Virus record (IMG/VR): IMGVR_UViG_3300042507_004218
Location: 1-61,564 of that record
Direction: 5' to 3' (one strand)
Source: a virus
Lineage: Duplodnaviria > Caudoviricetes
Length of the DNA: 61,564 nt
Positions 3,107-27,463 of this stretch are shown piece by piece; the first letter of the stretch is position 1; every line of letters starts with the position of its first letter. The notes beneath the pieces were generated by a model, which did not search any database, had not been told where the DNA came from, and worked only from the letters and a program-made list of their open reading frames with translations. The position numbers and the translations under genes are program-made.

Positions 3107-5569
3107 TCACCCCTTGGTTTGCGGGCGTTGCGCAGCCCGTTGTGCCTGTTGTGCAGCCTTGAGGGCGGCAGCTTGCGCCTGCTGGCGCAGCTTCTGCTGA
3201 TGGGCCTGCTCCTTGTGCGTCAGTTCTTGCTGCGCGCGCATGGCCTGCATCTGCGGCGGCTCGCCCTGGTTCTTCTGGGCATCAAGCGCGAGACGCGCCT
3301 GCTCAAGCTGGAGCTTCTGCTGAGCGATCTGGAAGTCGCGCTGGCTGTCTTGATCCTTGCGCTGCAGCTCTTGGGCCTTCAACTGCAGCTCCATCTGCTG
3401 CATCTGCAGCGTCGGGTCCATGGACTGCTGCTGAGCACGCTGCTGTGCCGCCATGGCTTGGTTCTGCACCATCGTGCGCTGTGCAGCCGCTGCAATCAGC
3501 GGTGCGATGGCCTTCTCGTCCTCAGGGGCAACCGGCGTGTCGCCCTCTTCGTCAAGCGGTGGCAGGGGCACGCCAAGCTGCATCTCGACCTGAGCCCGGT
3601 ACGCGAACGCGGTGTGCTCCGCGATGTGCGCCATGAGCGCGGCCATCATCTGCTGTGCCATGGGGTTCTGCCCCAGGGTGGCAGCGATTCTCGGGTCCTG
3701 CATGAACGCTTGGTGCGTGGCCATATGGGCCTCGTGGTCCTGGTACGCGAACGCCTTGAGGGGGCGCATGCGCAGCACGTCCATGTTCTCCGTGACGGGG
3801 TCGCGGGGCTTCTGGTCCTCGGGCGTGGCCACGAGACGCTCGGCGTTCTTGATCCCCAGCACCTCCAGCATCTGACGGTGCAGGTACGGCTGGTCGTAGA
3901 TCTGCGGCGCGCTTTGCGCAAGCTGCAGTGCCGCTTGGTACTGCATGATGCGTTGGGCCATCGTGGCCGCGTTCGGATCGCTGACCGGGATGACCTCGAC
4001 CACATCGTAGTCGGCCTGCTTGACACGGCGATCCCCGCCCTCGGGCGTGTACGAGTAGTCCTCGTCGGTGTAGTCGCGGATGATCTGCTTCAGGAGCTTG
4101 AACTCCATCTTCAAGCTGGCATGGACCCGGGCCTGAACCGCGCTCATGGTCTTGAGCTGCCGCTCCAGGATGGCCAGGGTGGTGCCCACCGGCGCCTGGG
4201 CTGACATGTCGCTGATCTTCAGATCTGCGATGGCTGCAAGCCTGCGCCCTTCCTCCGTAATGCGCTCCAGGAGCGCGGCAAGCACTTGGCTGGGCTCCTT
4301 GTACGGCAGCGGCATGATGTTGTCGCGCACGGCCCCGGAGGCGATGTCAACGTCGCGGAACTCGCCCGGAGCGATGGGCGTGTCGTCCCCCTTGATCCGC
4401 AGTCCACGGGCCTTCAGACCCCCGGGCAGGTTGCTCAGCGTGCCGGCATCGACAAGCTGCCGGATGATGCTGGTGCCAGCACGGGCGTAGCCCCCGATGA
4501 GGTGGATGAACCCCAGGCCGTAGGCCCCGAAGCCGGGGATGTACGTGTACTGCACGAAGTGCTGCCGCTTGCGCTTGAGGTCGTCGCCCTCTTCCCAGTT
4601 GCGCCGGATGGCCAGGACGTTGCTCGTGCCACGCTCGATGGTGATGACGTAGGGCAGCGCGATGCCGTCCTCGTCCTCGTACCCCGGCATGTCGTAGTCA
4701 ACGTGGATCTCCAGCACTTGATACCGGTCATCTTCGTTGAGCGAGTACCCCTGATCTTCGGCTTTTTTCTTCTCGATGTCAGAGAAGAAGCGCACCGGTT
4801 CGCCCAGGTCAATCTCGCGGTAGAACCCCGCGACCTGGAGCCGCTTGAGGTCGTTCTTCGTCTTGCGCATCACATGCGTCACCCGCTCGCAGGTGTACAC
4901 GTTGGCCGCGCCGTAAGGCATGATCAAGTCTTCTGCCGGGATGTAGGGCGCGTCGGGCATCCGCGTGGCCGGGTTCGGGTAGACCTTCTTGAAGGCCGCG
5001 CCAATGAGGCCCAGACCGAAGAGCAACCGCTCGTGCTCCGGGCGGTAGTCGATCATCTTCTCGGTGAGCATGTAGTTCATGTCCTCACGGACGCGTTCTG
5101 CAGCTTCTTCCTTAGGCTTGGTGATTTCGCCCACGATCTTGGTCTTGACGGGGCCTTGAGCGGGGAACGTCTCCGTGATCATTTCTGACTGGAAACGCAC
5201 TGCTGCCTCCGTCAGCAGCGGGGAAAACACGCCGCAAGCACCGCTCCAAGGTTCAGTGCGGTCTTCGTACTTCATCCCCAGGACTTCAAGCCCCTTCACG
5301 TAGGCTTCGATCCAGTCCTTGCGGCTCTGGATGTCCGCATCCACCAGGGAGAGCAGGTCCGAAGCCAGCGTCTGCAACGCTCCCTCGTCCATGAACTCGG
5401 CCAAGTTGGCATCGAAGTCCTCCGGGCCCTCGGCACCGGGCTCCAGGGTGATCTCCAGGCCATCCACGCCCACCGTGACGGAGTCGGGGTTCTCGATTGC
5501 GATCTCGATGGCTGGGGCCTCGGAGAGAAGCGCGGGGTCCATCGGGGTCATTTGGGGTTCCATTGCCAT
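3107..5569 (-). CDS. Portal protein (podovirus-type, long Q-rich C-terminal coiled coil)
   Basis: 820 aa, immediately downstream of TerL, GGAG RBS. Size, position and C-terminal helical extension resemble P22-type portals. Confidence 0.8.
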   Translation of the reverse strand: MAMEPQMTPMDPALLSEAPAIEIAIENPDSVTVGVDGLEITLEPGAEGPEDFDANLAEFMDEGALQTLASDLLSLVDADIQSRKDWIEAYVKGLEVLGMKYEDRTEPWSGACGVFSPLLTEAAVRFQSEMITETFPAQGPVKTKIVGEITKPKEEAAERVREDMNYMLTEKMIDYRPEHERLLFGLGLIGAAFKKVYPNPATRMPDAPYIPAEDLIMPYGAANVYTCERVTHVMRKTKNDLKRLQVAGFYREIDLGEPVRFFSDIEKKKAEDQGYSLNEDDRYQVLEIHVDYDMPGYEDEDGIALPYVITIERGTSNVLAIRRNWEEGDDLKRKRQHFVQYTYIPGFGAYGLGFIHLIGGYARAGTSIIRQLVDAGTLSNLPGGLKARGLRIKGDDTPIAPGEFRDVDIASGAVRDNIMPLPYKEPSQVLAALLERITEEGRRLAAIADLKISDMSAQAPVGTTLAILERQLKTMSAVQARVHASLKMEFKLLKQIIRDYTDEDYSYTPEGGDRRVKQADYDVVEVIPVSDPNAATMAQRIMQYQAALQLAQSAPQIYDQPYLHRQMLEVLGIKNAERLVATPEDQKPRDPVTENMDVLRMRPLKAFAYQDHEAHMATHQAFMQDPRIAATLGQNPMAQQMMAALMAHIAEHTAFAYRAQVEMQLGVPLPPLDEEGDTPVAPEDEKAIAPLIAAAAQRTMVQNQAMAAQQRAQQQSMDPTLQMQQMELQLKAQELQRKDQDSQRDFQIAQQKLQLEQARLALDAQKNQGEPPQMQAMRAQQELTHKEQAHQQKLRQQAQAAALKAAQQAQRAAQRPQTKG

Positions 5570-5577: not shown

Positions 5578-7131
5578 CTAGTAGTACGCAGCGCGTCTAA
5601 CGCTGCGGAATTCACGTGGTTCTTCAGGCTCATCCGACGGCAGTCTGATGAAGCCGCCCTGGCGCATGCGCATGAGCGCCTGCGTGCAAGTATCGACGTA
5701 GTCGTCGTGTTCGCCAGCGGGGAAGGCCGCGATCTCCTCGATGACTTCGCGTGCCCAGCGCGTGTCAGGCGCCCAGACACGACCCGAGGAGAACAGGTCC
5801 GAGACGGCGTTCAAGCGCACGCGCTTGTCGTTCGACTGGTTGGCCTTGCCACGCGAGGGGCTGAACTCGCCAATCGCGATGCCCATGGCGCGTAGCTCCT
5901 GGATCAGAGGCGCACCGGCAGCTTTCTTCTCGATCAAGCAGGCATCTGGCTCCCACTCGCGGTAGTACTCCAGCGCGCGTTTCTTCAGGTCAGGAAATGT
6001 CCACCGCCCCTTGATGGCGTCGAGCAGGATGATGTGGGCGTTGTCGTTGTCTTCCTCGTTGAACCACACGCCCCACGTGGTGCAGGCGGTGTAATCGCTG
6101 GAGGTCTTTGTCTCGTGCGCTGTGTCCCACGACTGGATGATGTACTCGCACTTGGGCGGCTTCTCGTGCTCCCAGATCTGCCAGAGGTCGCGCTTGATGA
6201 CTGCCGCCACCTCAGAGGTGGGGTTCTGCATGTACTGCGCCTGCCAGAAGCGCGGGTCCATGCCTGCACGTTTTGCCTGCAACTGCTCCAATGGCCACTG
6301 CTCCGGCCACAAACTCTTCTCTTCAGGCGTATGCTCGTTCAGAATGGCCGGAAGCTCGACAATCTCCCACTTGTCAGCGTCAGGGTTCTTGATCTGGTGC
6401 TTGATCAACATCCCCGTAAGGTCGATCTCGCTCCACCGCGTCATAATGACGATGATGGCGCCTCCTGGCATAAGGCGCTGGAGGGGGCCGGTCTGGAACC
6501 AGTTCCATGCCGCGTCGAAAGGCGTGCGTGTGCCCGCTTTGATGTCCTGTTCCGAGTGCGGATCGTCGATGACAAACAGATCTGCGCCCCGGCCTGCGAT
6601 ACTGCCGCCCACGCCAACCGCGTAGTATTGGCCACCTTCGGTGGTTGACCACTTTCCAGCCGCTTTTTGGTCCTCAGAAACGCTTGTTTTGGGAAAAATA
6701 GGCGTGTAGACCTCGGTTGCGATGAGGTTTTTGATGCGACGCCCAAAATCTTCCGACAGAGACGCGGTGTGCGTCCCCATGATGACCTTTTTGTGCGGAA
6801 ATTTGCCCAAAAAGTAGGAGGGAAATAGATAAGAGCTGAACTCCGATTTGCCCATACGGGGCGCGATGTTGATGATCACCCGGTGTTTGCGCCCATGGAT
6901 GATGTCATCGAAGATCTTACTGAGCGCGCGGTGGTGAGCGCCTTCCTTGAACCCCGGATAGACGGCGTGTGCGAAGCCTACCACTGAATTCTGAGCGGCT
7001 TTCAAGCGACTTCGGCGTTCTTTCTCTTCGAGCAGGTCGAAGAGTTCCATTTTTTCCTTGACAGAAAGCGTAGGAAGCGCGGCATGAATAGCCTGCGCTT
7101 CTGCGGGGGTCAAGAAATCAGGCAGCTTCAT
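5578..7131 (-). CDS. terL: Terminase large subunit
   Basis: Walker A IAPRMGKS, Walker B LFVIDD, coupling motif IMTRW, RNase H-like nuclease motifs QSWDTA and HDDYVD. Confidence 0.95.
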   Translation of the reverse strand: MKLPDFLTPAEAQAIHAALPTLSVKEKMELFDLLEEKERRSRLKAAQNSVVGFAHAVYPGFKEGAHHRALSKIFDDIIHGRKHRVIINIAPRMGKSEFSSYLFPSYFLGKFPHKKVIMGTHTASLSEDFGRRIKNLIATEVYTPIFPKTSVSEDQKAAGKWSTTEGGQYYAVGVGGSIAGRGADLFVIDDPHSEQDIKAGTRTPFDAAWNWFQTGPLQRLMPGGAIIVIMTRWSEIDLTGMLIKHQIKNPDADKWEIVELPAILNEHTPEEKSLWPEQWPLEQLQAKRAGMDPRFWQAQYMQNPTSEVAAVIKRDLWQIWEHEKPPKCEYIIQSWDTAHETKTSSDYTACTTWGVWFNEEDNDNAHIILLDAIKGRWTFPDLKKRALEYYREWEPDACLIEKKAAGAPLIQELRAMGIAIGEFSPSRGKANQSNDKRVRLNAVSDLFSSGRVWAPDTRWAREVIEEIAAFPAGEHDDYVDTCTQALMRMRQGGFIRLPSDEPEEPREFRSVRRAAYY

Positions 7132-7778
7132 GTTTGCGGCAACACTACTGCGTCAGAAACGGGCTGCGCGTCAACAACGCCCATGAAGCGTGAGAGCTTC
7201 TCCTTGATTTTGGCGTCGAGTTCGGTGTCGCTGACGTTCGTCTTTTTGACCTCTACGCGGTCGGTGAAGAGCGCAATCTCCGTGACGCGGCCAAGTAGCT
7301 CCAGCGCCCTCAGGCGTATGCGTGCATCTGGGTGCTTGGTTTCTTCCACGATCTTGGCTACCGCGTAGCCTCGGATCTCCTTGGCCTGCTCGACGAACTC
7401 CCAGTCGTAGGCGGTCAGCATGCCCGTCAGGTGCTGCACGGCAGCAGGCGTCTTCAGCGCCAGGAGGCGCTGTTTCTGTGTCTCGGACGGGGTGTTGGGC
7501 GCGGTGACGGCCACAAAGGCGCTTTGCGCCATGGCCACGGAGTTCTGCGCTTCGGTGGAGGCAACGGTAGGCGCCCCCAGGCTGGCCAACCAGTTGGCCG
7601 TGCCGTGCTGTGCGGCAATGACCTGGGTAGGCGCGGCGTCTTCAAGCGGCGTGAAGGACGGGCTGTCCTCCGCGCAAATCTCCGGCTCGAAGTCGATCAG
7701 GTGCTGCAGCATGTTTTCGCAGGGCTTGGTGCCCGATGGGCGCGAGTGTATACTCAGGTCGCTTGCTTCGGCAAGCAT
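7128..7778 (-). CDS. Putative terminase small subunit
   Basis: Overlaps the TerL start by 4 bp; helical RLRALELLG motif. Start is uncertain: ATG 7778 (AGGAGA RBS) or ATG 7712. Confidence 0.55.
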   Translation of the reverse strand: MLAEASDLSIHSRPSGTKPCENMLQHLIDFEPEICAEDSPSFTPLEDAAPTQVIAAQHGTANWLASLGAPTVASTEAQNSVAMAQSAFVAVTAPNTPSETQKQRLLALKTPAAVQHLTGMLTAYDWEFVEQAKEIRGYAVAKIVEETKHPDARIRLRALELLGRVTEIALFTDRVEVKKTNVSDTELDAKIKEKLSRFMGVVDAQPVSDAVVLPQT

Positions 7779-7836
7779 GCTTGTCTCCTGCTGCCGGAGC
7801 ATCCGGCTTTGGCCCCCTCGGTGAGGGGGTTTTTTT
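7761..7836 (+). ncRNA. Candidate ~75-nt small RNA carrying an anti-RBS segment
   Basis: TTGGTG-17bp-TATACT promoter (7726-7754), then GCTTGC-TTCG-GCAAGC hairpin, linker CATGCTTGTCTCCT, GCCGGA-GCA-TCCGGC hairpin and an intrinsic terminator. Confidence 0.55.
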
Positions 7837-7838
7837 AT
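7812..7838 (+). terminator. Rho-independent terminator
   Basis: GCCCCCTC-GGT-GAGGGGGT stem-loop followed by a T-run. Confidence 0.8.
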
Positions 7839-7844
7839 TTGTGT

Positions 7845-7964
7845 ATGTCAAGAATTTGACAATATGTGTTTGGTTTTTGTAGTAATGTCAAGGATTTGAC
7901 AAAAGTAATTTTGTTTTTGTAGTAATGTCAAAGATTTGACAAAAGCAGTGTGGTTTTTGTAATT
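7845..7964. repeat. Three AT-rich 40-bp tandem repeats, each containing a TGTCAA-N4-TTGACA palindrome
   Basis: Palindromes at 7846-7861, 7886-7901 and 7926-7941, each followed by GTTTTTGTA. Lies at the divergence point of the two genome arms. Confidence 0.9.
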
Positions 7965-8194
7965 TAATTTTGTAAAAAATGCGTAGTGTGGTTGTGGTTT
8001 CGTGTTCATATAGCGTCGCTACCTCGCTGCACAGCTTGGGGGCTCCCGGGTAGGGTGGGGTCAGCAGTAGGGGCTAGGGGAGCACGCTGAAGGGGGGTTG
8101 AGGGCATATGTGAGAGGGCCGAATCCTCTCGGCGACGCCGCACGCACTGCGGCATTTTGGTAATGGGACACGATGTCCCCATTGGAGTAGCAAC

Positions 8195-8638
8195 ATGAAC
8201 AAGCAATCCCTTTTCCGTGCTTTCGACGCCTACGCTGTGGGTTCGCAGAATCTGGTGGAAACCCTGCGCAAGGCAGCCGTCGAAGCGGGTTTCAAGACCC
8301 TCGAAGACTGCAAGCCCGTGGTGACCGAATGGGCTTCGAAGAAGTACGGTGTGCCCCTGGTCGAGTCGAAGAGCCCGCGCAACAAGGGCGAGATGGTGCT
8401 CGACCGCGCGGCAGCGAAGTACGAAGCCGCCAAGAAAGCCGCACAACGCCTGATGGACGCGCTCGGCGGTGACGCTGACGCGCAGGCAAAGCCGGCCAGC
8501 AACAAGACCGAGGGCGTCGAAGTGCCCGCGCATATCGCTGCTCTGGCAGCGAAGCTGGCAGCGGCTTGCCTGGAATACGAGCAGTCGAAGAAGATCGCCG
8601 CGCAAGCGGTGGCCGAGGCTTTCGCTGCCGCGAAGTGA
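8195..8638 (+). CDS. First early hypothetical protein (147 aa, Ala/Lys-rich)
   Basis: GGAG RBS, phage-typical codon usage, immediately after palindrome 1. Confidence 0.8.
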   Translation: MNKQSLFRAFDAYAVGSQNLVETLRKAAVEAGFKTLEDCKPVVTEWASKKYGVPLVESKSPRNKGEMVLDRAAAKYEAAKKAAQRLMDALGGDADAQAKPASNKTEGVEVPAHIAALAAKLAAACLEYEQSKKIAAQAVAEAFAAAK

Positions 8639-8766
8639 TCAACGGGGACACGTTGTCCCCTTTCCGCTACGTCTGTAGCGGCCTGGGTTCGCCCAGGCCA
8701 GTGCGGATGTGATGCGCCCGTCGGGCGCTGCCGTGCTCGGGGCACAGCCCCGTCAAGGAGAGAGCC

Positions 8767-9120
8767 ATGAAAAAAGTAGCAGAAGCCCTGTATCGTGAAA
8801 TCGAGGCCACCGAAGCGCTTGCCGCGGAGTTTGACCACAAAAGGGGTCACTCCGACTGCTGGTCGCAGACGGTGCGCTACGGCGCATCGCTGGCGCCAAA
8901 AGCGTTGGATGAGATAGGCAAGCTCGTCCGGCGCCACAAGGCGCTGGCAGCGAAGCTTGAAGGTGCGCGTGGCGAGTACCGTCTGGTGCTCACCGAGCGC
9001 ATGACCAACCTCCGCGAGGAGGCCTACGGGTGGCTCAACCACCCGGACATCGTGACCGCTTGCGGTCACGATGTATTCCCAGCGTATCAGGCGTTGGAGC
9101 GCGAATTCCAGCACCGTTGA
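8767..9120 (+). CDS. Hypothetical protein
   Basis: AAGGAG RBS, 117 aa. Confidence 0.75.
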   Translation: MKKVAEALYREIEATEALAAEFDHKRGHSDCWSQTVRYGASLAPKALDEIGKLVRRHKALAAKLEGARGEYRLVLTERMTNLREEAYGWLNHPDIVTACGHDVFPAYQALEREFQHR

Positions 9121-9206
9121 GCGTAGCGGCGAATGGGGACTGCGTGTCCCCATTGCCAGTGCGCTTGGAGCCTGCGACGCAGGCAGCGTGCTATCGAGGA
9201 AGCAGC

Positions 9207-9374
9207 ATGAACTTCAAGACCGCGATCCGCGCCGCTTGGCGCGACCAGGAGATCGCCCGCCTGATGGGCGTGGCGATGAAGAAGCAAGCCCGCAAGGGCA
9301 AGGCACCTTCGCACAAGGTGCTGCCGAAGCCTGCTGCGCAGGCGCAGGCTGCGAAGAAGGGAGGCAAGCAATGA
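9207..9374 (+). CDS. Small basic hypothetical protein
   Basis: MNFKTAIRAAWRDQ...KKGGKQ, GAGG RBS, ATGA overlap with the next gene. Confidence 0.65.
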   Translation: MNFKTAIRAAWRDQEIARLMGVAMKKQARKGKAPSHKVLPKPAAQAQAAKKGGKQ

Positions 9375-9529
9375 TCGACCAACTCAAGGCGATCCGAAAG
9401 GCGCTGCGCGAGCAGCGCAAGGCCGAAGACGCAGCGGCACGCCGTGCCGCACAGGCCAAGGCCCGAGCCCAGGAGCGCGACTCCTGGGCAGACTTCAAGA
9501 CCCTCTGCGCCCCACTGAAAGGGCGTTGA
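9371..9529 (+). CDS. Small hypothetical protein
   Basis: MIDQLKAIRKALREQ..., GGAGG RBS. Confidence 0.65.
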   Translation: MIDQLKAIRKALREQRKAEDAAARRAAQAKARAQERDSWADFKTLCAPLKGR

Positions 9530-9544
9530 ACCAAGGAGAGCACC

Positions 9545-9778
9545 ATGCACAACTACGTCACCTCCGTCGGCTACGACGGCAAGCTCTGGCTCCTGCTGCG
9601 CGAGGACGCCACACAAGGCGTCTACGAAGGGCAGACCGTGCGCAGCTTCAGGGGCGAGAGCTACGTCATCACGGGCGGCAGACCCCCGCACAAGCCCGAG
9701 AGCACGGGCAAGGTGTGGACTGAGGCAGGCGGGGAGTACTACCCCAGCGTCTTCGGCCTGCGCTGGGTCAGAGCGTAG
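9545..9778 (+). CDS. Hypothetical protein
   Basis: AAGGAG RBS; GGRPPHKPESTGKVW...YYPSVFGLRW. Confidence 0.75.
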   Translation: MHNYVTSVGYDGKLWLLLREDATQGVYEGQTVRSFRGESYVITGGRPPHKPESTGKVWTEAGGEYYPSVFGLRWVRA

Positions 9779-9869
9779 GGCGGAGCCGCGCCGGGGTAGA
9801 AATCTACCCCGGCTAAATGGGGACAGGTTGTCCCCCAATCGTATGATGTCAAACGTTTGACAAAGAAAA

Positions 9870-10210
9870 GGGGTGGTGGACACTTGTCCCCGCCCCACTA
9901 GGCGTTGGACACCACCTTGGACGCCCTAAGTCCTTGATCCACTTGGTTCTTTTATTTATTTATATATATAAGTATAGTATAGTAAGAGAAGAGAAGAGCT
10001 GGAAGATTTCTTTATGAACAAGCAACAGCCGGAAATCTTTTTCAGAAAAGAAATTCTTTCCGTCTTTCCCAGAAGTGTGACCTCGCTCCTGAGAAGACAT
10101 CTGGACGCAAACGAGAAAGATGAATGCTGACAACGCCAAGTGCCGTCCAAACTACTGTCCAGTGAGCCTTTGGTCTGGGACAATCCCGGCTTTTGGTGGA
10201 CGCAAACCTT
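9870..10210. other. Putative replication origin: AT-rich core flanked by TGGAC repeats
   Basis: Very AT-rich tract at 9950-10080 (TTTATTTATTTATATATATAAGTATAGTATAG), flanked by several TGGAC(A/G)C / GTCCA motifs. Confidence 0.45.
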
Positions 10211-10295
10211 ACACGTGGCTTACGCCACGTGCCCCAACGGGGACTGCGTGTCCCCTTTCAACCCGGCGCTCACGCGCCTCAACCTGGAGAAAAAA

Positions 10296-10916
10296 ATGGC
10301 TTCGACAGGCTACTACGACCGCTTCCTGCACCTCGGCGTCACCGCCGACTGCCCTGGCTGCGGGCGCACGCTGCGCCTGGGGGATTTCCGAGGGGCGCAT
10401 AGCCGAAGGCTGCGCCCCATATGCGTGCGCTGCGCCCCTGAGAAGGGGCTGGAGGACATGACTCCAGACGAACGTCTGGCGGCGCTCGACAATCAGCGTC
10501 CCTACGTGACGCCCACCAGGGTGGCGCGGCTGAATGCCGCTGACGCGGCGGCTGAGACGCATCGCAGGAAGGCGGGCGCTTTGCAGCGTCGCAGGGCGCA
10601 GCGCACGCGTAACTGGGCGCCCGTGCTGCGGGCGCTGCAGGCGGAGCACACATGGGCGCAGGGGCATGCTCAATTCCCGGGCTCCGCTGCCTGGGGAGAA
10701 TTCTTCGCAGCGTACGCTGCTGCCTTGAGTGACGCGATCCGGCGGGTACGTGCTGCTTCGTCAGGCACGAGTCGGCTCGTGCCGCTGCCTGAGCAGACCG
10801 ACCCCATGCACTGGCTGTATGACGAGACGGTGCGCTCTTTGAAGAAACTCTACGCTGCCTGTGCGCCCATCCCCGGACGCCGGCTGTACCGAGATCCGCT
10901 GTTTCTGCAGGCGTGA
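10296..10916 (+). CDS. Hypothetical protein with a CxxC...CxxC zinc-binding motif
   Basis: CPGC...CVRC. Start moved to ATG 10296 (GGAG RBS), downstream of the palindrome at 10239. Confidence 0.65.
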   Translation: MASTGYYDRFLHLGVTADCPGCGRTLRLGDFRGAHSRRLRPICVRCAPEKGLEDMTPDERLAALDNQRPYVTPTRVARLNAADAAAETHRRKAGALQRRRAQRTRNWAPVLRALQAEHTWAQGHAQFPGSAAWGEFFAAYAAALSDAIRRVRAASSGTSRLVPLPEQTDPMHWLYDETVRSLKKLYAACAPIPGRRLYRDPLFLQA

Positions 10917-10971
10917 GCCTGCGTTTGTAACGGGATAGAAATCTACCCCACATTGAAGAAGGAGAAGTGAG

Positions 10972-11160
10972 ATGCAAGAAGTTTGGTTCATACGAGGCGA
11001 AGCCGTCGATGGGCTGCGCCATATGCTCTTCGCGACCAAGATGGCTGCGGAGATCTACGCTAGAAAACTCTTCCCCGATGAAGACCCGGACAGGCGCTAT
11101 GCGCGTATCTACTGCATGCCTGTCTGGGAAGAACGCGACCTCAAAGGAACCAAGAAATGA
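10972..11160 (+). CDS. Hypothetical protein
   Basis: AAGGAG RBS, 62 aa. Confidence 0.7.
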   Translation: MQEVWFIRGEAVDGLRHMLFATKMAAEIYARKLFPDEDPDRRYARIYCMPVWEERDLKGTKK

Positions 11161-11237
11161 AGATGCACCCCGACGACGCTCTGCTGCTCGCTGTCTGCGT
11201 AGCAGTTGCAGCACTGCTGGTTTTTGGTATCATTTGA
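11157..11237 (+). CDS. 26-aa single-TM peptide
   Basis: MKMHPDDALLLAVCVAVAALLVFGII, AAGGA RBS, ATGA overlap with the upstream gene. Confidence 0.5.
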   Translation: MKMHPDDALLLAVCVAVAALLVFGII

Positions 11238-11326
11238 GCAGGCACAAGCCTGCGCCCAACCGTCGCCCCTGCGGTCCAGGGGCAAACAAGCGGGGACATG
11301 ATGTCCCCATTGAAGGAGAAGCAAGC

Positions 11327-11932
11327 ATGAAGACCATCAACAAGCCCACCCCCACTGCGCTCTTCAAGGCAGCGCTCGACAGCGTCAAGCGTCGGGCCAT
11401 CATCGCGCAGCACAAGCGGGTGCTGTATGCCGCCTTCGTGCGGCTCCCGCAGGTCAAGCCCATCTTCGTCACGCTGGCCAAGGCGGCGCTGGGTGGTGAG
11501 CATCCCTGGGTCAACACCTCGGAGTACAGCGCCGAGGTGTCCCTCGGCCTGACGCTGCGCGAGCTGGAGTCGTTCAAGGACGAGCGCTTGACGAAGCTGG
11601 TGTCTGCCTTCGCGGGGGACGAGGGGACCGCCACCACGACGGACTACACGTACGACCAGCCCAACCGTGACTACCGCTTCACGATGGAGATCGAAGCTCC
11701 GCTGGCCGACCTGCTCGACGAGCAGCGTCGGGGCCTGCGCCTGACCGCTGCCGAGCAGCGCTCGCTGGCGTGGCTGCGCGAGCAGGCCCCGTACGAGGTG
11801 CCGCGCACCGTGCTGCTCACCGTGGGGATCTACGCCTACGTCAAGGCAGACAGCGCCGCCTGCCGCATCGAGGTCGTGGGCATCGAGGAGGAGGTGATCA
11901 AGAAGGAGATCAAGAGGATCGTCTGCGCCTGA
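11327..11932 (+). CDS. Hypothetical protein (201 aa)
   Basis: AAGGAG RBS after the palindrome at 11292; strong GC3 codon bias from 11327 onward. Confidence 0.75.
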   Translation: MKTINKPTPTALFKAALDSVKRRAIIAQHKRVLYAAFVRLPQVKPIFVTLAKAALGGEHPWVNTSEYSAEVSLGLTLRELESFKDERLTKLVSAFAGDEGTATTTDYTYDQPNRDYRFTMEIEAPLADLLDEQRRGLRLTAAEQRSLAWLREQAPYEVPRTVLLTVGIYAYVKADSAACRIEVVGIEEEVIKKEIKRIVCA

Positions 11933-12014
11933 CTGCGTCAGGTAGCGCCCGCTGAGCGGGCGCGTGAGCCCCCGGGGTAGAAAGCTACCCCATTCACCCC
12001 AAGGAGTAAGCAAC

Positions 12015-12224
12015 ATGCCATCCTGGCACCAACAAAACGCATTCCGACGCGACGGTTTCCCTAAGCTGTCGCACCCCACCATGTGGAGCAGCTACAACCT
12101 GCAGGGGCATCTCAGCGTCATGCGCCACGAATCACGCGAAGCGTGCATGACCTACTGCGCCAAGACGGGGGATGTCCCTCTGTCGCCTGACAACCACACC
12201 CTCGCAACGAAGAAGGAGAAGTGA
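12015..12224 (+). CDS. Hypothetical protein
   Basis: AAGGAG RBS after the palindrome at 11974. Confidence 0.6.
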   Translation: MPSWHQQNAFRRDGFPKLSHPTMWSSYNLQGHLSVMRHESREACMTYCAKTGDVPLSPDNHTLATKKEK

Positions 12225-12225
12225 C

Positions 12226-12930
12226 ATGCTATCCATCGACACCAACGCCAAGACCGTCAAGGGTCAGAAGTACGGCTACATGACAGGCGTCCTCTACCTG
12301 TCTCCGTACAACAAGTCCGGGCACAACGTCTGCCCCTTCGCCGCCATCGCCCAGTGCCACGCGCCCTGTCTCGATACTGCTGGCCGGGGCGCGTTCGACT
12401 CCGTGCAGCAGGCACGCCTGCGCAAGACGCAGATGTTCTTCGAGGACCGCGACGCGTTCATGGCCCTGCTGGTGGAGGACATCATGCGCCTGGAGCGCAC
12501 GGCCCAGGCCCGGGAGCTCGTCCCCGTGTGCCGCCTCAACGGCACATCCGACATCAAGTGGGAGCGCATCGCTGTGACCGTCAACGGCCACACTTACGCC
12601 AACATCTTCGAGGTCTTCCCGTTCATGCAGTTCTACGACTACACGAAGACGCCTGGGCGTGACGTAGCGCACATCCACAACTACGACCTGACGTTCAGCT
12701 ACTCCGGCGTGCCCGACTTCCAACGCTACGTGCGATACGCCAAGGAGAGCGGCATGCGCATCGCCGCCGTGTTCCGCAAGCGTGACGAGATCCCAGACAA
12801 GTTCCTCGGCATGGCGTGCGTTGACGGTGACGACAGCGACCTGCGCTTCCTCGACCCCCCGGGTGTCGTCGTGGCGCTGTATGCCAAGGGCCGCGCACGC
12901 CTGGATACGTCTGGCTTCGTCGTCGGCTGA
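12226..12930 (+). CDS. GP88-like protein with a three-Cys cluster (possible Fe-S / radical-SAM-like)
   Basis: NVCPFA..QCHAPCL..AGRG, RLNGTSDI, QFYDYTK, YDLTFSYS, DGDDSDLRFLD, LYAKG. Confidence 0.65.
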   Translation: MLSIDTNAKTVKGQKYGYMTGVLYLSPYNKSGHNVCPFAAIAQCHAPCLDTAGRGAFDSVQQARLRKTQMFFEDRDAFMALLVEDIMRLERTAQARELVPVCRLNGTSDIKWERIAVTVNGHTYANIFEVFPFMQFYDYTKTPGRDVAHIHNYDLTFSYSGVPDFQRYVRYAKESGMRIAAVFRKRDEIPDKFLGMACVDGDDSDLRFLDPPGVVVALYAKGRARLDTSGFVVG

Positions 12931-13061
12931 CAACATGCAACGGGGACATGTTGTCCCCGTGTCTTTTACTATCAACAAATCCCCGCAGTGTGCTACACTG
13001 CAGCCGCGCCTCGGGTTTTCAGGGGCACATCGGGCCAAAGGCCCATTGAAGGAGAAAGCAA

Positions 13062-14051
13062 ATGGCTCATCAAATCGACACCACCTCCCGCGCCACCGCT
13101 TCGTACGCCTCCACCCGCAAGGAGTGGCACGGCCTGGGGCAACTCATGCCCGCTGGCGCCGACCTCGACGCCTGGGCCCAGGCGGCGAACATGGACTACA
13201 AAGTCCTCCGCGCCTACCCGCGCTACGCCGTGGAGCGCATCAACCCCGAGGCTTCCCACATCCCTGCGAGCGCCTTGCGTCAGGTCGAGGACAAGGTCGT
13301 GCTGTTCCGCAGCGACACCCGCGCGCCCCTGGGCGTGGTCAGCGACGGGTACAAGGTCGTGCAGCCCCGGGAGGTGCTGGAGTTCTTCCGCGAGTGGGCG
13401 GACGCAGGCGGGCTCACCATCGAGTCCGCAGGCGTGCTGTTCGGGGGCAAGCGCTACTTCGCCACGGCTCGCCTGGGCGAGGCAGTGGCCGTGGACGGGG
13501 GCCAGGACCGCATCCTGCCCTACGCCCTGCTCTCCACCTCCGCTGATGGCTCCCTGGCCACCGAGGGGCGCTGGACGACCGTGCGCGTGGTGTGCAACAA
13601 CACCCTGAGCATGGCCCGGGAAGGCGCCACAGCCTTCCGCCTGACGCACCGCAGCGCATGGAAGCCGGAGAAGTTCAAGACCATCATCGAGGACGCCCAG
13701 CACGAGTTCGCCTCCTTCATGGAGACGAGCCGCAAGCTGGCGGCAATCAAGGTCGAGACGAAGCTGGCGGAGGAGATGACGACGCTGCTGCTCACCACAG
13801 CCGCGCGTGATGCGGACGCCGCCAAGGAGAGTGCCGGGTTCCAGCGCATCATGGGCCTGTTCCAAGGCACCGCCAAGGGCGCACTGCTGGAGTCGTCGCG
13901 TGAGACTGCCTGGGGGTGGCTGAACAGCGTCACCGAGTACGTGGACCACCATGCGCGTGCTCGCAACGACGAGAACCGCACCGCCAGCGCCCTGTGGGGG
14001 CAGGGCGACGCGCTGAAGAATCGGGCAGTGGAGATCGCACTGGAGGCGTAA
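13062..14051 (+). CDS. DUF932 family phage/plasmid protein
   Basis: MAH start, WHGLG, RSDT..PLGVVS..YKVVQ, SAGVLFGGKR, TTVRVVCNNTL, TAWGWLNSVTEYVDH. Confidence 0.85.
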   Translation: MAHQIDTTSRATASYASTRKEWHGLGQLMPAGADLDAWAQAANMDYKVLRAYPRYAVERINPEASHIPASALRQVEDKVVLFRSDTRAPLGVVSDGYKVVQPREVLEFFREWADAGGLTIESAGVLFGGKRYFATARLGEAVAVDGGQDRILPYALLSTSADGSLATEGRWTTVRVVCNNTLSMAREGATAFRLTHRSAWKPEKFKTIIEDAQHEFASFMETSRKLAAIKVETKLAEEMTTLLLTTAARDADAAKESAGFQRIMGLFQGTAKGALLESSRETAWGWLNSVTEYVDHHARARNDENRTASALWGQGDALKNRAVEIALEA

Positions 14052-14085
14052 GCTGCGCGTGGCGCAGTCGCAACGCGACTGCGTT

Positions 14086-14134
14086 TGTCAACCCCTTGAC
14101 AACATGAATCGGGAGGCCCACAATCGGGCCTCCC
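14086..14134 (+). promoter_or_regulatory. Sigma70-like promoter overlapping a TGTCAA-N4-TTGACA palindrome
   Basis: TTGACA at 14096, 17-bp spacer, CACAAT at 14119. The -10 lies mostly in the loop of a GGGAGGCCC/GGGCCTCCC inverted repeat. Confidence 0.6.
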
Positions 14135-14156
14135 TCAACCCTCAATGGAGTCTCAC

Positions 14157-14429
14157 ATGACTTTCAAGATCGAGTCCGGCATCCCCCTTCCCAAGCGCAC
14201 CTCCGTCGGTCGCAAGGGCACCGAGTTCCCCTTCGCTGACATGGACGTTGGCGAAAGCTTCCTGATGCCCTGCGACATCAGCGAAGAGAAGAACATCGTC
14301 AATTGGCGGCGCAAGCTGGCGTCTGCTCGCAAGCGCTTCGAAGAGAAGAGCGACTACGACATCGAGCTGCGCACCGCCGTCGTCTCCGACGACCGTGGCA
14401 CCGGGGTTCGTGTCTGGCGCACTGCCTGA
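14157..14429 (+). CDS. Small putative DNA-binding protein
   Basis: FKIESGIPLP...FPFADMDVGESF...GVRVWR, a pattern common in small phage proteins. Confidence 0.7.
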   Translation: MTFKIESGIPLPKRTSVGRKGTEFPFADMDVGESFLMPCDISEEKNIVNWRRKLASARKRFEEKSDYDIELRTAVVSDDRGTGVRVWRTA

Positions 14430-15368: not shown

Positions 15369-15850
15369 CTACGATCACCATTGACCGCGCCGTCGTTGAG
15401 CAGGCGCTGGAGGCGTTGGAGTACGCGCAGCAAGATCGCGAATGCCCAAGCACAACCCGTCAGGCAATCGCCGCCCTCCGCGCCGCCCTGGCGCAGGAGC
15501 AGGACGAGCCAACTGGTAAGCAACCCTTACAGGTTGAGTCGGTGGCAACAACTCAACAACCCGCTGGCGAAACGCCCCCGTCCGACTATCGGCGCGGCTA
15601 TTGGGACGGATTCAACATCGGCAAACGCGAGGGGCGCATTGAGGCAGAAGACGCCTTGGCGCAGCAGGATGAGCCGGAAACCTGCACTTGGTATCAAGAC
15701 GGCGACAGCGACTCAGGCGTTTACGCCACCTCATGTCGGCACTACTTCAACCTTGAAGATGGTACGCCAGAGGACAACAAGATGCAGTGGTGCTGCTACT
15801 GCGGCAAGAAGCTGGTGCAGGAACTGATTACGGAGGGCGACGATGAGTGA
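15365..15850 (+). CDS. Modular hypothetical protein (repeat-jointed array, member 1)
   Basis: QALEALE / LRAALAQ / QQDEP motifs; C-terminal Cys-rich module (CCYCGKK). Confidence 0.7.
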   Translation: MTTITIDRAVVEQALEALEYAQQDRECPSTTRQAIAALRAALAQEQDEPTGKQPLQVESVATTQQPAGETPPSDYRRGYWDGFNIGKREGRIEAEDALAQQDEPETCTWYQDGDSDSGVYATSCRHYFNLEDGTPEDNKMQWCCYCGKKLVQELITEGDDE

Positions 15851-16127
15851 CCTACGAACCGCCGCCCAGCAGGCGCTGGAGGCGTTGGATGAGGCCGACA
15901 CGTTTCACCGCAACCTGTCAGATCAGCGCGCGCGCAGGCTTGCCGCAATGGCCGCCCTCCGCACCGCCCTGGCGCAGCAGGATGAGCCGACACTCACCAT
16001 CGAGCGCCTGCGCGATGCGCTCGTGGCGTCTCGCATCATCCCGCCCGCAGCGGTCGAAGACCCGGACGAATACGACGATGGAGTGACTCTGCATCGCATC
16101 GAAGCACTGCACAGGAGGATCGCATGA
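15843..16127 (+). CDS. Modular hypothetical protein (array member 2)
   Basis: MSDLRTAAQQALEALD...LRTALAQQDEP. Confidence 0.7.
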   Translation: MSDLRTAAQQALEALDEADTFHRNLSDQRARRLAAMAALRTALAQQDEPTLTIERLRDALVASRIIPPAAVEDPDEYDDGVTLHRIEALHRRIA

Positions 16128-17074
16128 ATGACCTACGAACCGCCGCCCAGCAGGCGCTGGACAGCATCAACGAACTGTTTGCCGCCGAACAGTCAGAAGG
16201 CGGAGAACGTGGCGGACATATCCGCACACCGGCCACGCGAGAGCATTTGGTGCGTGTAGCTCAGGCTCGCAAGGCTTTGCATGAAAGCTGCGGCGCCCTC
16301 CGCGCCGCCTTGGCGCAGCGGGCCGAGCTGGTGGAGCCGGTGGAGCCGGTGGATGTGGGGCTGCTTGAGTACCGAGGCAACAGCGTGGCTTTCATCCATC
16401 AAAAAATGACGGCATATCGAACCGGGATTGATGTCGCGTGGGATGCCTTCAGAGCAAAGGGACTGCATCCTGACGGCAAAACGTCATTGGCCGACATGAT
16501 CGCAAAGTACACCGCCCCACCGCAGCAGGCCGAGCCGGCGCAGGGGCCAGAAGGTATGGTTGAGTTCCTGGCCGATCTGCAACGCAGTCGGACGAAGTAC
16601 CCGAAGAACAGGCGCATGTTCGACGGCCTGATGGGCGAGATTGATGAGTTGCGCCGCGCCTACGCTGGCGATGGCGACATTCGTGCCGAAGCATTCGACG
16701 TTGCCGTGTGTGCTTTCCGCATTGCGACCGAAGGTGACGCAGGCGGTAACGCCCGGTTGGAGCAGGCCGAGACGGATCATGAAACCCGAGCCGAACTGGC
16801 GGAGCAGCAGGTTGTGCAACTTGCCGAGGAGCGCGATCACTACCGTAACCTGTGGCAGAAGGCGCAGCAGGATGAGCCGCAACCCATGCACCCTGAACTA
16901 CGAAAGATGTGGGAGGACCACTTCGACAAGTGTTTCAGGGCTATCCCTGTGCCGGAGCAGGCCGAGCCGGTGCAAATGCACCCGTCTCAATTTGCAGAAA
17001 TGATCAAAGGTAAGGAGGCCATGACCGGCATCCCGGTGTACTGGGCCGAGTGGCCGAACAAGGAGGAATCATGA
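16124..17074 (+). CDS. Modular protein with an internal MazG-like module (array member 3)
   Basis: MNDLRTAAQQAL start, several QQAEP/QQDEP joints, internal GEIDEL...AEAFDVA (ExxE...ExxD). Confidence 0.7.
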   Translation: MNDLRTAAQQALDSINELFAAEQSEGGERGGHIRTPATREHLVRVAQARKALHESCGALRAALAQRAELVEPVEPVDVGLLEYRGNSVAFIHQKMTAYRTGIDVAWDAFRAKGLHPDGKTSLADMIAKYTAPPQQAEPAQGPEGMVEFLADLQRSRTKYPKNRRMFDGLMGEIDELRRAYAGDGDIRAEAFDVAVCAFRIATEGDAGGNARLEQAETDHETRAELAEQQVVQLAEERDHYRNLWQKAQQDEPQPMHPELRKMWEDHFDKCFRAIPVPEQAEPVQMHPSQFAEMIKGKEAMTGIPVYWAEWPNKEES

Positions 17075-17562
17075 CTGATCTGAGAGCCGCTGCCCAGCAG
17101 GCGCTGGAGGCGTTGGAGAAGTACCGCAAGATGATGTTTGTGGAAGCAGGGTGTCGTTTTGGCGAAGGCGATGCAGCCATCACCAACCTCCGCGCCGCCT
17201 TGGCGCAGCAGGCCGAGCCGGTGGCGGGAAAGGTTGTAGCGTGGGGCGTGTTCGCCAACATCGACGGCGAATGGCAGTTGCAGCACCCCGTGTTCGCGGG
17301 TGACGAGCAGGGCAAGGTGAACGCTGAGTTTGAGCGCGCATCGTACAGCGGCCCGCAGCCGCTAGAAGTGCGGCCTCTCGGTGTCGTGACTGCTACGGCA
17401 CGGCAGGCCGAGCCGGCGCAGGAGCCGGTGGCGACGCTGATCGCTCAGCGCGATGCGCTGCTGGAAATGCTGAAACTGGCCCGATCCATCATCGGCCACC
17501 CGGATGACGCGCACTCACAGATGATCGACGCCGCCATCAAGGCGGTGGAGGAGGAAGCATGA
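17071..17562 (+). CDS. Modular hypothetical protein (array member 4)
   Basis: MTDLRAAAQQALEALE...LRAALAQQAEPVA...QAEPAQEPVA...DAAIKAVE; AGGAGG RBS. Confidence 0.7.
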   Translation: MTDLRAAAQQALEALEKYRKMMFVEAGCRFGEGDAAITNLRAALAQQAEPVAGKVVAWGVFANIDGEWQLQHPVFAGDEQGKVNAEFERASYSGPQPLEVRPLGVVTATARQAEPAQEPVATLIAQRDALLEMLKLARSIIGHPDDAHSQMIDAAIKAVEEEA

Positions 17563-20133: not shown

Positions 20134-20436
20134 ATGGCAAAGACACCAGAAAAACGAGTCAAGGATGCGTGCGTCGAAGTGCTAAAAGCTTTCAACGCGT
20201 ATTACTTCTTCCCCGTCATGGGCGGCTACGGACGCTCCGGTATCCCGGACATCATCGCTTGCTACAAGGGCTACTTCATCGCCATCGAGTGCAAGGCGGG
20301 GTTCAACACAACCACTCAACTACAGGAAAGGGAGCTAAAAGCTATCGCCGCTGCGGGCGGCATCACCCTGGTGATCCGCGAAGACACAATCGATCTGCTC
20401 CGACAGGAGCTTAGGAGAATCAAGTATGGAGAGTGA
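20134..20436 (+). CDS. VRR-NUC domain nuclease (Holliday junction resolvase-like)
   Basis: PEKRVK...GIPDII...FIAIECKA...LQERE...AGG. Confidence 0.85.
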   Translation: MAKTPEKRVKDACVEVLKAFNAYYFFPVMGGYGRSGIPDIIACYKGYFIAIECKAGFNTTTQLQERELKAIAAAGGITLVIREDTIDLLRQELRRIKYGE

Positions 20437-25697: not shown

Positions 25698-25745
25698 AAT
25701 GTTTGACAAGCGGGCCGCAGGACCCGCCCAACCAAAGGAGCAAGC

Positions 25746-26150: not shown

Positions 26151-27149
26151 GTGAGCAATATCGCACTCTTTTCTTCGTCCAACGTTCCGGCATTCGCCAA
26201 GAAGCAGGAGCTGTCGGCACTGGCCAAGTCGCTCTCGGGCGGCGCTGGTGGCGGCGGCAAGCGCATCTCCATCAAGGGCGGCGTGTTCCGCCTGCTGGTG
26301 GACGGCAAGGAAATCGCCGCCATCGAGGAGCGCTACCTCGATGTGGTCCTGGTGAACGCCGCGCCCAAGATCGGGCGCACGTTCTACATGAAGACCTACG
26401 ATGGCGACACGCCCAGCGCCCCGGACTGCTGGAGCGCCGACGGCGAGAAGCCCGACGCCACCGCTGCCAACCCGCAAGCGTCGAACTGCGCAAGCTGCCC
26501 GCAGAACGCCAAGGGCTCGGGGCAAGGCGACAGCCGCGCCTGCCGCTTCAGCCAGCGTCTGGCCGTGGTGCTGGCCAACGACATCGAGGGCGATGTCCTG
26601 ATGCTGCAGGCGCCTGCGGCGTCGATCTTCGGCAAGGCCGAGGGCGAGAACATGCCGCTCCAGGCGTACGCTCGGTTCCTGGCGGCGCAAGGCGTGTCCC
26701 CCGAGACGGTGGTCACCCGGATGAAGTTCGACACCAAGGCGGAGGCGCCCAAGCTGTTCTTCAAGCCCATGCGCTGGCTGACCGAGGAGGAGTACGCCGC
26801 TGCGACGCAGCAGGGGCAGAGCCCGGAGGCCAAGCAGGCCATCACGATGACCGTGGCGCAGATGGACAAGGTGGCTGCTCCTGCTCCCATGGAGCTTCCC
26901 GGCAAGCCCCCGCAGCGCGCGGCTGCGCCCGCCCCTGCCCCGGCGCCTGCGGCTGAGGATGATGACGAGCCCGCGCCGCCCCCGCCGCGTCGTGGCCGTC
27001 CGCCCAAGGCTGTCGTCGAGGCCCGCAAGGCCGCAGAGGCGGCTGCAGAGGAGCCGCCCGAGCCGGTCGTCCAGCGTGCGCCTGCCCCGCCCGCTGCCGC
27101 GCCCAAGACCCCGCTTGCGAAGCTCGCGGAAGATTGGGATGATGAGTGA
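26151..27149 (+). CDS. Putative ssDNA-binding/annealing protein
   Basis: GTG start with AAGGAG RBS; four-Cys motif, Pro/Ala linker, acidic C-terminus EDWDDE; located in the replication module. Confidence 0.6.
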   Translation: MSNIALFSSSNVPAFAKKQELSALAKSLSGGAGGGGKRISIKGGVFRLLVDGKEIAAIEERYLDVVLVNAAPKIGRTFYMKTYDGDTPSAPDCWSADGEKPDATAANPQASNCASCPQNAKGSGQGDSRACRFSQRLAVVLANDIEGDVLMLQAPAASIFGKAEGENMPLQAYARFLAAQGVSPETVVTRMKFDTKAEAPKLFFKPMRWLTEEEYAAATQQGQSPEAKQAITMTVAQMDKVAAPAPMELPGKPPQRAAAPAPAPAPAAEDDDEPAPPPPRRGRPPKAVVEARKAAEAAAEEPPEPVVQRAPAPPAAAPKTPLAKLAEDWDDE

Positions 27150-27184
27150 GTAACTGGGGGCGGCACTGCCGCCCCCTTTGTCAT

Positions 27185-27463
27185 ATGCCCTACTCAACCG
27201 ACACCATCTACAGAGTCAAGAAAGGATCGCACAGCCTGGGCAACACGCTTGGGCGCCTTGCGGTTGATCTTGACTTCTCCGTACAGCGCATCGCCAAGGC
27301 CACAAACGCCACTAGGCAGACCGTTTACAACTGGTTGTCTGGAGGTGAAGTGATGGGCGCCTACCGCCCGAATGTCGAGCGCTTGATCAACATACTGAAG
27401 ACAGCAAGAACTGCTGACGAAGCCTGGGGAGTAGCATGCCGGGAATTCAACCTTCAAGCCTGA
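27185..27463 (+). CDS. Cro/XRE-like HTH protein
   Basis: SVQRIAKATNATRQTVYNWLSG. Confidence 0.75.
   Translation: MPYSTDTIYRVKKGSHSLGNTLGRLAVDLDFSVQRIAKATNATRQTVYNWLSGGEVMGAYRPNVERLINILKTARTADEAWGVACREFNLQA

Follow-up and report, generated by a model that had tools for sequence, protein, structure and literature searches.

Palindromic stem-loops at the early-gene junctions of a phage lineage and their possible role as linkers for cassette exchange

The closest known kind of element to the one described here is the promoter-early stem-loop (PeSL) of the T4-type phages RB49 and phi1 (Arbiol et al. 2010, PMC2839356). According to that paper, PeSLs are repeated intergenic GGGG...CCCC stem-loops in hyperplastic early regions with small orphan genes; they bound insertions, deletions and replacements between close relatives and were proposed to be linkers for modular shuffling. 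The same text reports terminator activity and mini-circles for PeSLs, speculates on a specific DNA-binding protein and compares PeSLs to integron cassette arrays. Here we analyse the virus record IMGVR_UViG_3300042507_004218 (Duplodnaviria; Caudoviricetes) as a single window, the whole record of 61,564 bp, estimated to be 97% complete, in which the palindrome GGGGAC-N5-GTCCCC recurs between the first early genes. As with PeSLs, the palindromes are concentrated in a hypervariable early region among orphan open reading frames (ORFs), form a GC-rich stem-loop and bound differences between relatives. The element is nevertheless distinct. PeSLs are described as composites of ~100 bp each with a sigma-70 promoter, whereas here only one of the seven copies (9819) adjoins a TTGACA element (9847), and the genes form one operon behind putative common upstream promoters. 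Moreover, the conserved unit is a perfect palindrome of 17–27 bp with invariant arms, and it is carried by an unrelated family with a ~60-kb podovirus-like genome.

Three further systems invite comparison. The attC sites of integrons span 57–141 bp and have paired core sites and extrahelical bases. Like integron arrays, the early region holds small promoterless ORFs in one orientation behind a common promoter, each then closely followed by a palindrome; the palindromes are homogeneous within an array, the cassette content is hypervariable between close relatives and the AAC...GTT flanks resemble attC core sites. Unlike integron arrays, no integrase, recombinase or repressor family was found among the 67 ORFs scanned, the palindromes are 17–27 bp long, perfect and without extrahelical bases, and the swaps in relative L154 exchange an ORF between conserved spacers, not an ORF plus its site. 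Stoperator sequences differ among related phages. The repressors of cluster A mycobacteriophages terminate transcription elongation at numerous stoperators, according to PMC9283540. The palindromes share with these the presence of many copies of one short phage-specific site in intergenic gaps. However, stoperators are asymmetric, genome-wide sites for a monomeric immunity repressor of temperate phages, whereas the present sites are palindromic and lie within ~5 kb, and the scanned ORFs include neither a repressor nor an integrase. Lastly, the promoters of the N4 virion RNA polymerase also have a stem of 5–7 bp and a 3-nucleotide (nt) loop upstream of early genes; PMC4496689 gives their requirements as loop bases −11 A/G and −10 G, a G at −8 and a G:C loop-closing pair, whereas here the loop bases vary, the closing pair is A:T and an RNA polymerase was not detected. 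No published description of the palindrome surfaced in a general literature search, with no wider search made, and a term search for palindromes, hairpins and stem-loops in two papers on the nearest cultured group (PMC9599517, PMC12753301) returned none.

Seven palindromes between the first early genes

The 17-mer GGGGACNNNNNGTCCCC (GGGGAC-N5-GTCCCC) occurs as six exact copies, at 8644, 9135, 9819, 10239, 11292 and 12942, compared with 0.00 on average over 100 shuffles that preserve dinucleotides. The first-pass annotation of this DNA, made from the letters alone, had counted seven such copies. Six are exact, but the seventh, at 8164, reads TGGGACACGATGTCCCC and lacks one G of the left arm, thus leaving a perfect 15-bp palindrome at 8165–8179; L154, whose terminase is 98% identical, has the complete 17-mer at the equivalent site. 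The accompanying claim that the palindrome is found nowhere else holds for the 17-mer and is nearly true of the 15-bp core, which with at most one mismatch has 11 matches (2.57 expected), those outside the early sites lying at 53884 (no mismatch) and at 22978, 23349 and 53768 (one mismatch each). All seven copies are intergenic, falling outside the ORFs taken as genes as the annotation had it, and all lie on the + strand early operon within 8164–12958, the first ~5 kb of the rightward operon. Their positions, with that of the gene between the first two, are as follows.

8164..8180, + strand: copy 1, TGGGACA-CGA-TGTCCCC, in the 5′ leader, 14 nt ahead of the g1 start
8195..8638, + strand: g1, the first early gene, 147 amino acids (aa), conserved, between palindromes 1 and 2
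8644..8660, + strand: copy 2, GGGGACA-CGT-TGTCCCC, 5 nt past the g1 stop, −12.1 kcal/mol as RNA
9135..9151, + strand: copy 3, GGGGAC-TGCGT-GTCCCC with AAT/ATT extension, 14 nt past the g2 stop, −17.5 kcal/mol
9819..9835, + strand: copy 4, GGGGACA-GGT-TGTCCCC, after g5 and a family-B hairpin, 11 nt ahead of TGTCAAACGTTTGACA
10239..10255, + strand: copy 5, GGGGAC-TGCGT-GTCCCC, 40 nt ahead of the g6 start, after an AT-rich island
11292..11308, + strand: copy 6, GGGGACA-TGA-TGTCCCC, 18 nt ahead of the g9 start, adjoining the ribosome-binding site (RBS)
12942..12958, + strand: copy 7, GGGGACA-TGT-TGTCCCC with AC/GT extension, 11 nt past the stop of g11 (Pfam GP88), −16.1 kcal/mol

Five of the copies follow a stop codon, at 5, 14 and 11 nt (8644, 9135 and 12942) or, with other hairpins in between, at 40 and 54 nt (9819 and 11292). 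The copy at 8164 belongs to the 5′ leader, and that at 10239 comes after the AT-rich island. Five copies consist of 7-bp arms around a 3-nt centre and the two TGCGT copies of 6-bp arms around a 5-nt centre. The centres are CGA, CGT, GGT, TGA, TGT and twice TGCGT, and the closing pair of the 3-nt loops is A:T. As RNA the copies are predicted to fold into stems of 6–9 bp with energies of −9 to −17.5 kcal/mol. They are not canonical intrinsic terminators, because their flanks are symmetric (AAC...GTT) and lack a one-sided T run. Two finer points of the first-pass annotation must be given up: the TGCGT copies do not show the same pattern on the opposite strand, where they read GGGGACA-CGC-AGTCCCC with the seventh pair not restored, and the central G is not invariant, since sense-strand centres in relatives include C, A and T. 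The AA(C/T)...(A/T)TT flanks it had noted are real but differ by phage (GAACC/GGTTC, ATAC/GTAT, GAAC/GTTC).

Conservation, compensatory divergence and exchange among relatives

Relatives were drawn from IMG/VR, which holds at least 600 terminase relatives of the window, and the best 80 terminase loci of these were examined. The exact 17-mer is present in just 6 of these 80, while an exact-pattern scan of IMG/VR returned at least 149 stretches, many of them multi-copy. Relatives whose large terminase is 66–98% identical share the palindrome in the same region, at 3–10 copies each and at 47–61% GC, which bears out the conservation that the first-pass annotation had suggested looking for. Four of them (G001, G002, G003 and G004), syntenic with the window and with terminases 66–72% identical and a GC content of 47.5–56%, hold 10, 4, 3 and 5 exact copies, respectively, against 0 for a reversed control pattern. 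All of these copies lie in a hypervariable stretch beside terS, the likely small terminase gene, where most early genes of the window have no counterpart. Over six phages, 24/37 distinct GGGGAC-type sites lie no more than 20 nt past a sense-strand stop codon. Many end 14–27 nt before the next start codon, immediately 5′ of the RBS, and some are more than 100 nt from the next gene.

In several closer relatives this position is taken by other palindromes, with both arms changed. These include GAGGACA-N3-TGTCCTC, (TA)GTGTCA-N3-TGACAC(TA), GCTGACA-N3-TGTCAGC, GGGGGAGAAATTCTCCCCC, GGGACGGAATTCCGTCCC and ATGCCATTA-N2-TAATGGCAT, among others. A family with at least three such hairpins is present in 40 of 63 non-redundant early regions, many of those without a family being short fragments. 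In G000–G006, G008 and G009 each family is restricted to one stretch of 5–8 kb beside terS; the whole record of G007 has no palindrome family of at least three copies. G001 (L234/L237) has in addition its own second family, GCCGGTG(A/T)CCGACCGGC, with four copies at 63016–65064 in the same early region, and G005 has three copies of GGGGGC-N4-GCCCCC in its early region.

On these comparisons, both the pairing and the sequence of the arms are under selection. At the orthologous site after g1, nine relatives have differently spelled but fully paired palindromes (GGGGACA/TGTCCCC, GAGGACA/TGTCCTC, GGGGTGA/TCACCCC, GGGGGAGAA/TTCTCCCCC and others). Nineteen family sites differ from their family arm at two positions, and in 6 of these the changes are compensatory; in the hairpins of the adjoining spacer both sides have changed in 6 of 29 consensus pairs. 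Moreover, the arms do not vary among the copies of one genome, nor among some 15 phages that differ widely in GC, whereas the centres drift.

The gene content between the sites varies among relatives, with breakpoints at or beside the motif. L154 matches the window over 7819–8769, 9118–9353 and 9367–9437. Between 8769 and 9118 an unrelated gene stands in place of g2. L154 also has an additional gene, flanked on either side by a copy of a palindrome-bearing spacer of ~95 bp, and an extra palindrome separates g3 from g4, which overlap in the window. Contigs from public sequencing runs, aligned to the window at ≥90% identity, show further variants; the run search gave seven runs, each with no more than 0.20 of the sampled words and all as contigs, and three of the four runs examined are probably DNA. 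Joints in variant contigs connect 8062 to 8165, 11237 to 11311 (in two runs), 12012 to 12224, which removes g10, and 10903 to 11163, across g7. Loose ends fall at 8183, at 9155/9156 (three runs) and at 11969, where the variant has a GGGGAC palindrome; a further 65 loose ends of variant contigs exist beyond these. Homologues of g11 and g12 in G001 and G004 are found in different contexts, again adjoining palindromes.

Some arrays mix two or three families, as in L169 (three GAGGAC and four GGGGAGA copies) and L158 (two GGGGAC and six GGGGAGA). Three palindromes are hybrids, being GGGGAC..GTCCTC in L161 and L169 and GAGGAC..GTCCCC in L169. Among sharp ends of homology (≥88% identity, 21 loci), 27/104 lie within 20 nt of a family palindrome compared with 8.4% of random positions, and 11/104 within 5 nt compared with 4.1%, sharp breaks being about three times nearer to these palindromes than random positions are; ends were counted in both partners of a pair with gene borders uncontrolled, and the figures are an association, not proof of a mechanism. 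Together with the replacement and insertion in L154, the variant contigs and the hybrids, this enrichment gives direct sequence support to one of the four readings offered by the first-pass annotation, that of boundaries for the exchange of early cassettes.

Linkers, operators, RNA sites or promoters

We tentatively favour a reading of the palindromes as transcribed intercistronic stem-loops that double as crossover linkers, giving it slightly less than an even chance. Host RNA polymerase would transcribe a polycistronic early operon from tandem sigma-70-type promoters at 7846–7941, and each palindrome stands where one small early gene without its own promoter gives way to the next, in most cases right behind a stop codon and right ahead of the next RBS. 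In the RNA, stable hairpins of 6–9 bp would punctuate the message, where they may cause pausing or attenuation, protect processed 3′ or 5′ ends, or shield the spacers from Rho. In the DNA, the palindromes and the conserved spacers around them would serve as common linkers for the exchange, gain and loss of early-gene cassettes, and cassette turnover would keep the copies alike within an array and spread the palindrome across distant relatives. Recombination would take place at the palindrome itself, rather than breaks being selected at gene borders.

A number of observations weigh against this reading. Terminator prediction on the + strand flagged one copy of seven (at 12940), and the copy at 11292 was flagged on the − strand alone. 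Among single-mismatch sites, 14 have a wobble pair on the sense strand, 21 on the antisense strand and 24 another mismatch, next to 179 perfect sites; there is thus no sense-strand excess of G.U pairs as a signal of RNA constraint, and the pairing is not tied to the RNA strand. In about 15 phages the arms are invariant, and the centres are variable and AT-rich with A:T pairs next to the loop. Such a pattern typifies duplex DNA recognised by a dimeric protein rather than an RNA hairpin whose stability is under selection, and the A:T pairs and AT-rich centres suit a protein-bound duplex or an extruded cruciform no less well than an RNA hairpin. The public runs give no RNA ends or transcript levels and were used for variant junctions alone. 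With regard to exchange, 77 of the 104 sharp ends (74%) are more than 20 nt from any family palindrome, and alignments at ≥70% identity give just a two-fold excess or thereabouts (65/483 vs 6.6%). Gene borders, at which the palindromes lie, would be expected to host viable breaks regardless, and the contiguous identity between copies, ~7–11 bp, is short for homologous recombination.

The same arms lend themselves to an operator or roadblock array, in which a dimeric DNA-binding protein of the phage, with g1 as the candidate, shuts off or partitions early transcription in the manner of repressors at mycobacteriophage stoperators. We consider this unlikely, though it has real points in its favour: invariant arms, a variable AT-rich centre of 3 nt, half-site centres 10 bp apart and a palindrome that differs among close relatives, as co-evolving specificity would predict. 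Even mixed arrays could serve one protein, because the GGGGAC and GGGGAGA types both fit GGGGA-N7-TCCCC. The g1 family has 82 database relatives. Its N-terminal part varies; its C-terminal pair of helices is almost unchanged and may, as a guess, be a ribbon-helix-helix. In 33/63 regions the early genes begin with a homologue of g1, and these include every region with at least three copies of the GGGGACA type or of the GGGACA type without the further G; g1 co-occurs with the ACA-N3-TGT class. However, g1 similarity tracks that of the terminase rather than palindrome type: L164 (GGGGTGA) and G009 (GAGGACA) are nearer to the g1 of the window than are G003 and G004 (GGGGACA), and phages with ACA-N3-TGT palindromes but no detectable g1 exist (L049, L163, L191, L210, L218 and L192). 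Nor does g1 have a recognisable DNA-binding fold. A model of g1 (pLDDT 80) found no fold match in the PDB, the best Foldseek E value being 0.84 and the best Z in a VIA-align comparison over 48,161 chains being 4.9. As the palindrome specificity factor g1 was tried and set aside. A weak helix-turn-helix protein at 27146–27463 likewise follows overall relatedness and not palindrome type, and no repressor or integrase was found among the scanned ORFs. The operator array suggested by the first-pass annotation retains its geometry, but the compensatory variants, mixed-family arrays, hybrid sites and covarying hairpins alongside speak against it, as does the absence of sites at the early promoters, which bear a different palindrome.

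If pairing is what counts, the hairpins might instead be bound as RNA by a phage protein, either as a translational operator 5′ of the RBS or as a processing site at which early RNA is cut, on the model of coat-protein operators or Cas6-type hairpin nucleases. Selection on the pairing together with conservation of the stem sequence, hairpins that often end 14–27 nt ahead of a start codon adjoining the RBS, and surrounding spacers that are structured and show covariation would all suit such a protein, and residues 35–92 of g1 are weakly KH-like (Z 3.7–4.7, not significant). We nonetheless think it improbable, as the loops, which are the usual recognition element, are unconstrained, the sense strand has no excess of G.U pairs, and the early genes gave no match to an RNA-binding or nuclease domain in PHROGs and Pfam scans.

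Hairpin promoters of the N4 type, which would be extruded from supercoiled DNA and used by a phage RNA polymerase that has escaped recognition, were also raised in the first-pass annotation, and here the geometry fits (a 7-bp stem and 3-nt loop). An AT-rich centre favours hairpin extrusion, and the palindromes have one; they are confined to the first-expressed region at a short and fairly regular distance from many start codons, their sequence differs by phage, and the genome encodes a virion-type protein of 2701 aa. The loops vary and are closed by A:T, however, unlike the N4 requirements set out in PMC4496689. In agreement with the earlier remark that no RNA polymerase is visible, none was matched in PHROGs (48 ORFs), in Pfam (58 ORFs) or in a PDB sequence search with the 2701-aa protein, a sequence-level negative that a very divergent enzyme would escape, and what the giant protein does carry is an HExxH motif and LPD38. 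In the window and its relatives alike the operon opens with putative sigma-70-type promoters, most GGGGAC-type sites (24/37, as above) hug the upstream stop, and some are more than 100 nt from the next gene. We regard such promoters as very unlikely.

More improbable still is a decoy or mimic of a host sequence, such as a clustered regularly interspaced short palindromic repeat (CRISPR), as in RNA anti-CRISPRs, or a repetitive extragenic palindromic (REP)-like element, or else a signal for stepwise DNA entry. The location, in a region where anti-defence genes usually sit, would fit a mimic, and pairs of GGGGAC-N5-GTCCCC do occur as repeats in diverse bacterial genomes. A search of 185,579 species genomes for pairs of copies 35–65 nt apart gave 67 loci, for the most part solitary pairs or iteron-like runs whose centres differ, and of the 8 in which copies were examined none resembles a spacer-bearing array. 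The palindrome is, moreover, common to phages of 47–61% GC, whose hosts are probably different. Bacterial clusters with other centres (e.g. GGGGACTTTTAGTCCCC) in L312 (Tropicimonas), L286/L310 (a metagenome-assembled genome of Acidobacteriota) and L331 are paired or iteron-like repeats. L328, outside the eight loci, has three copies 71 bp apart. Tandem matches from the viral scan (L053 and L024) were considered as CRISPR-like and set aside as plain tandem repeats in giant-virus bins.

The exchange side of the favoured linker reading could also take a stronger form. The palindromes might be integron-like recombination sites in a lytic phage lineage, extruded as hairpins or cruciforms while the early region is heavily transcribed, and recognised or cut by a phage factor, for which g1 and an Hjc-like resolvase (20134–20436) would be candidates. 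Capture and exchange of early, probably anti-defence, genes among co-infecting phages would then be active and targeted, not a by-product of general recombination. We find this improbable. The protein at 20134–20436 has 100 aa, a PD-(D/E)xK-like motif and a Pfam Hjc match of 21.7 bits against a cut-off of 21.1, and is conserved in 7 of the records of nine relatives. A second junction nuclease, endonuclease VII-like, is encoded at 55923–56579.

Early regions hold the fastest-evolving genes of phages, many of them probably concerned with host takeover and anti-defence, and the palindromes touch on the question of how new genes enter and leave a phage without breaking expression. The lineage is large and offers a clean natural system, with one operon and short perfect palindromes at its junctions, and natural variation between palindrome “dialects”, of which there are several, and in arrays that are mixed or contain hybrids. 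Should exchange be directed by the palindromes, one gene pool would be shared by phages that differ widely in GC, and cassette borders and orphan early genes in metagenomes would have a simple sequence handle. If they bind a phage protein instead, this would be a new regulator–site pair of rapidly changing specificity.

Neighbouring elements and genome context

Other repeated or structured elements of the early region, all on the + strand, are listed below.

7846..7941, + strand: three 40-bp modules in tandem, each with TGTCAA-N4-TTGACA and then TTTTTGTAGTAAT, and each carrying a TAGTAAT box
7960..8160, + strand: G-rich 5′ leader of the early operon, with 7956–8065 matched at the nucleotide level in the loci of 9 relatives (L048 and L049 being one contig)
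8661..8766, + strand: structured spacer after palindrome 2, with hairpins at 8664–8681, 8680–8699, 8714–8728 and 8738–8752, then an RBS
9790..9813, + strand: copy 1 of a second hairpin family (GGGGTAGAAAnCTACCCC), after the g5 stop and ahead of palindrome 4, −21.9 kcal/mol
10933..10948, + strand: copy 2 of the second hairpin family (GGATAGAAATCTACCC, with one mismatch), in the g6–g7 gap
11974..11991, + strand: copy 3 of the second hairpin family, in the g9–g10 gap

The second hairpin family, GGGGTAGAAAnCTACCCC, thus fills three more gaps between early genes. Palindrome 2 (8644) is the first hairpin of a conserved structured spacer. The part that follows it, 8661–8766, shows nucleotide-level conservation across eight or more relatives although the following gene differs; two of its four hairpins show compensatory changes among relatives and one has a UUCG loop.

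The modules at 7846–7941 would be sigma-70-type host early promoters with a palindrome over the −35 box. TGTCAA-N4-TTGACA has 12 strand-matches in the window compared with 0.97 expected, with further copies downstream at 9847–9862, 14086–14101 and 25693–25708, and its modules resemble early promoters into which an operator has been built. The layout recurs in relatives, with a terS terminator, TGTCnA-N4-TnGACA, TATAAT-like boxes in an AT-rich stretch and a conserved G-rich leader. A promoter consensus scan of 7700–14300 gave three promoter-like sites, none of them a repeated part of the palindrome unit; one of these, at 9820–9847 (score 9/12), overlaps the copy at 9819 and takes its GGGACA as the −35 hexamer. 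In the leader, the blocks GTGTGGTTGTGG..GTGTTCATA and GGGTAGGGTGGGGTC are kept in many relatives even without gene conservation, and the G runs could form a quadruplex. Over 7700–14300, Rfam returned nothing beyond two matches below threshold, to small RNAs of betaproteobacteria and located in each case at the terS terminator. An AT-rich island at 9920–10130 (TTTATTTATTTATATATATAAGTATAGTATAGTAAG...), which follows the TGTCAAACGTTTGACA element within an early region of 60% GC and whose sole ORF has 38 codons (10014–10130), could be an internal promoter or a foreign insert.

The genome is divided between leftward genes, among them those for the portal (3107–5569), the large terminase (5578–7131) and terS (7128–7802), a rightward block at ~7850–30500 that begins with about 12 small orphan genes and continues with DNA polymerase, exonuclease, helicase and primase, and structural genes over the remainder. 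The flanking early genes mostly have no Pfam or PHROG match. By terminase the nearest named phages, all below 50% identity, are pelagiphages of the HTVC023P/027P type and a few lake or cyanobacterial phages; no close nucleotide relative was found among named phage records, of which four matched, each over at most 3% of the query.

Three successive ORFs (15843–16127, 16124–17074 and 17050–17562) start with a common motif, M.DLR.AAQQAL.., and share LRAALAQ..EP repeats, forming a local paralogue family that matches no database family. An HNH endonuclease at 50188–50676 (PHROG 99, E 1.5e-63), with a counterpart in 0/9 of the relatives' records, is probably a mobile insertion among the structural genes. 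The 2701-aa protein (30630–38735) is low-complexity and rich in Ala, Glu, Lys and Arg over its first ~1600 residues, carries the HExxH motif and the LPD38 domain of “polyvalent” proteins in its C-terminal third, and is probably an ejected virion protein.

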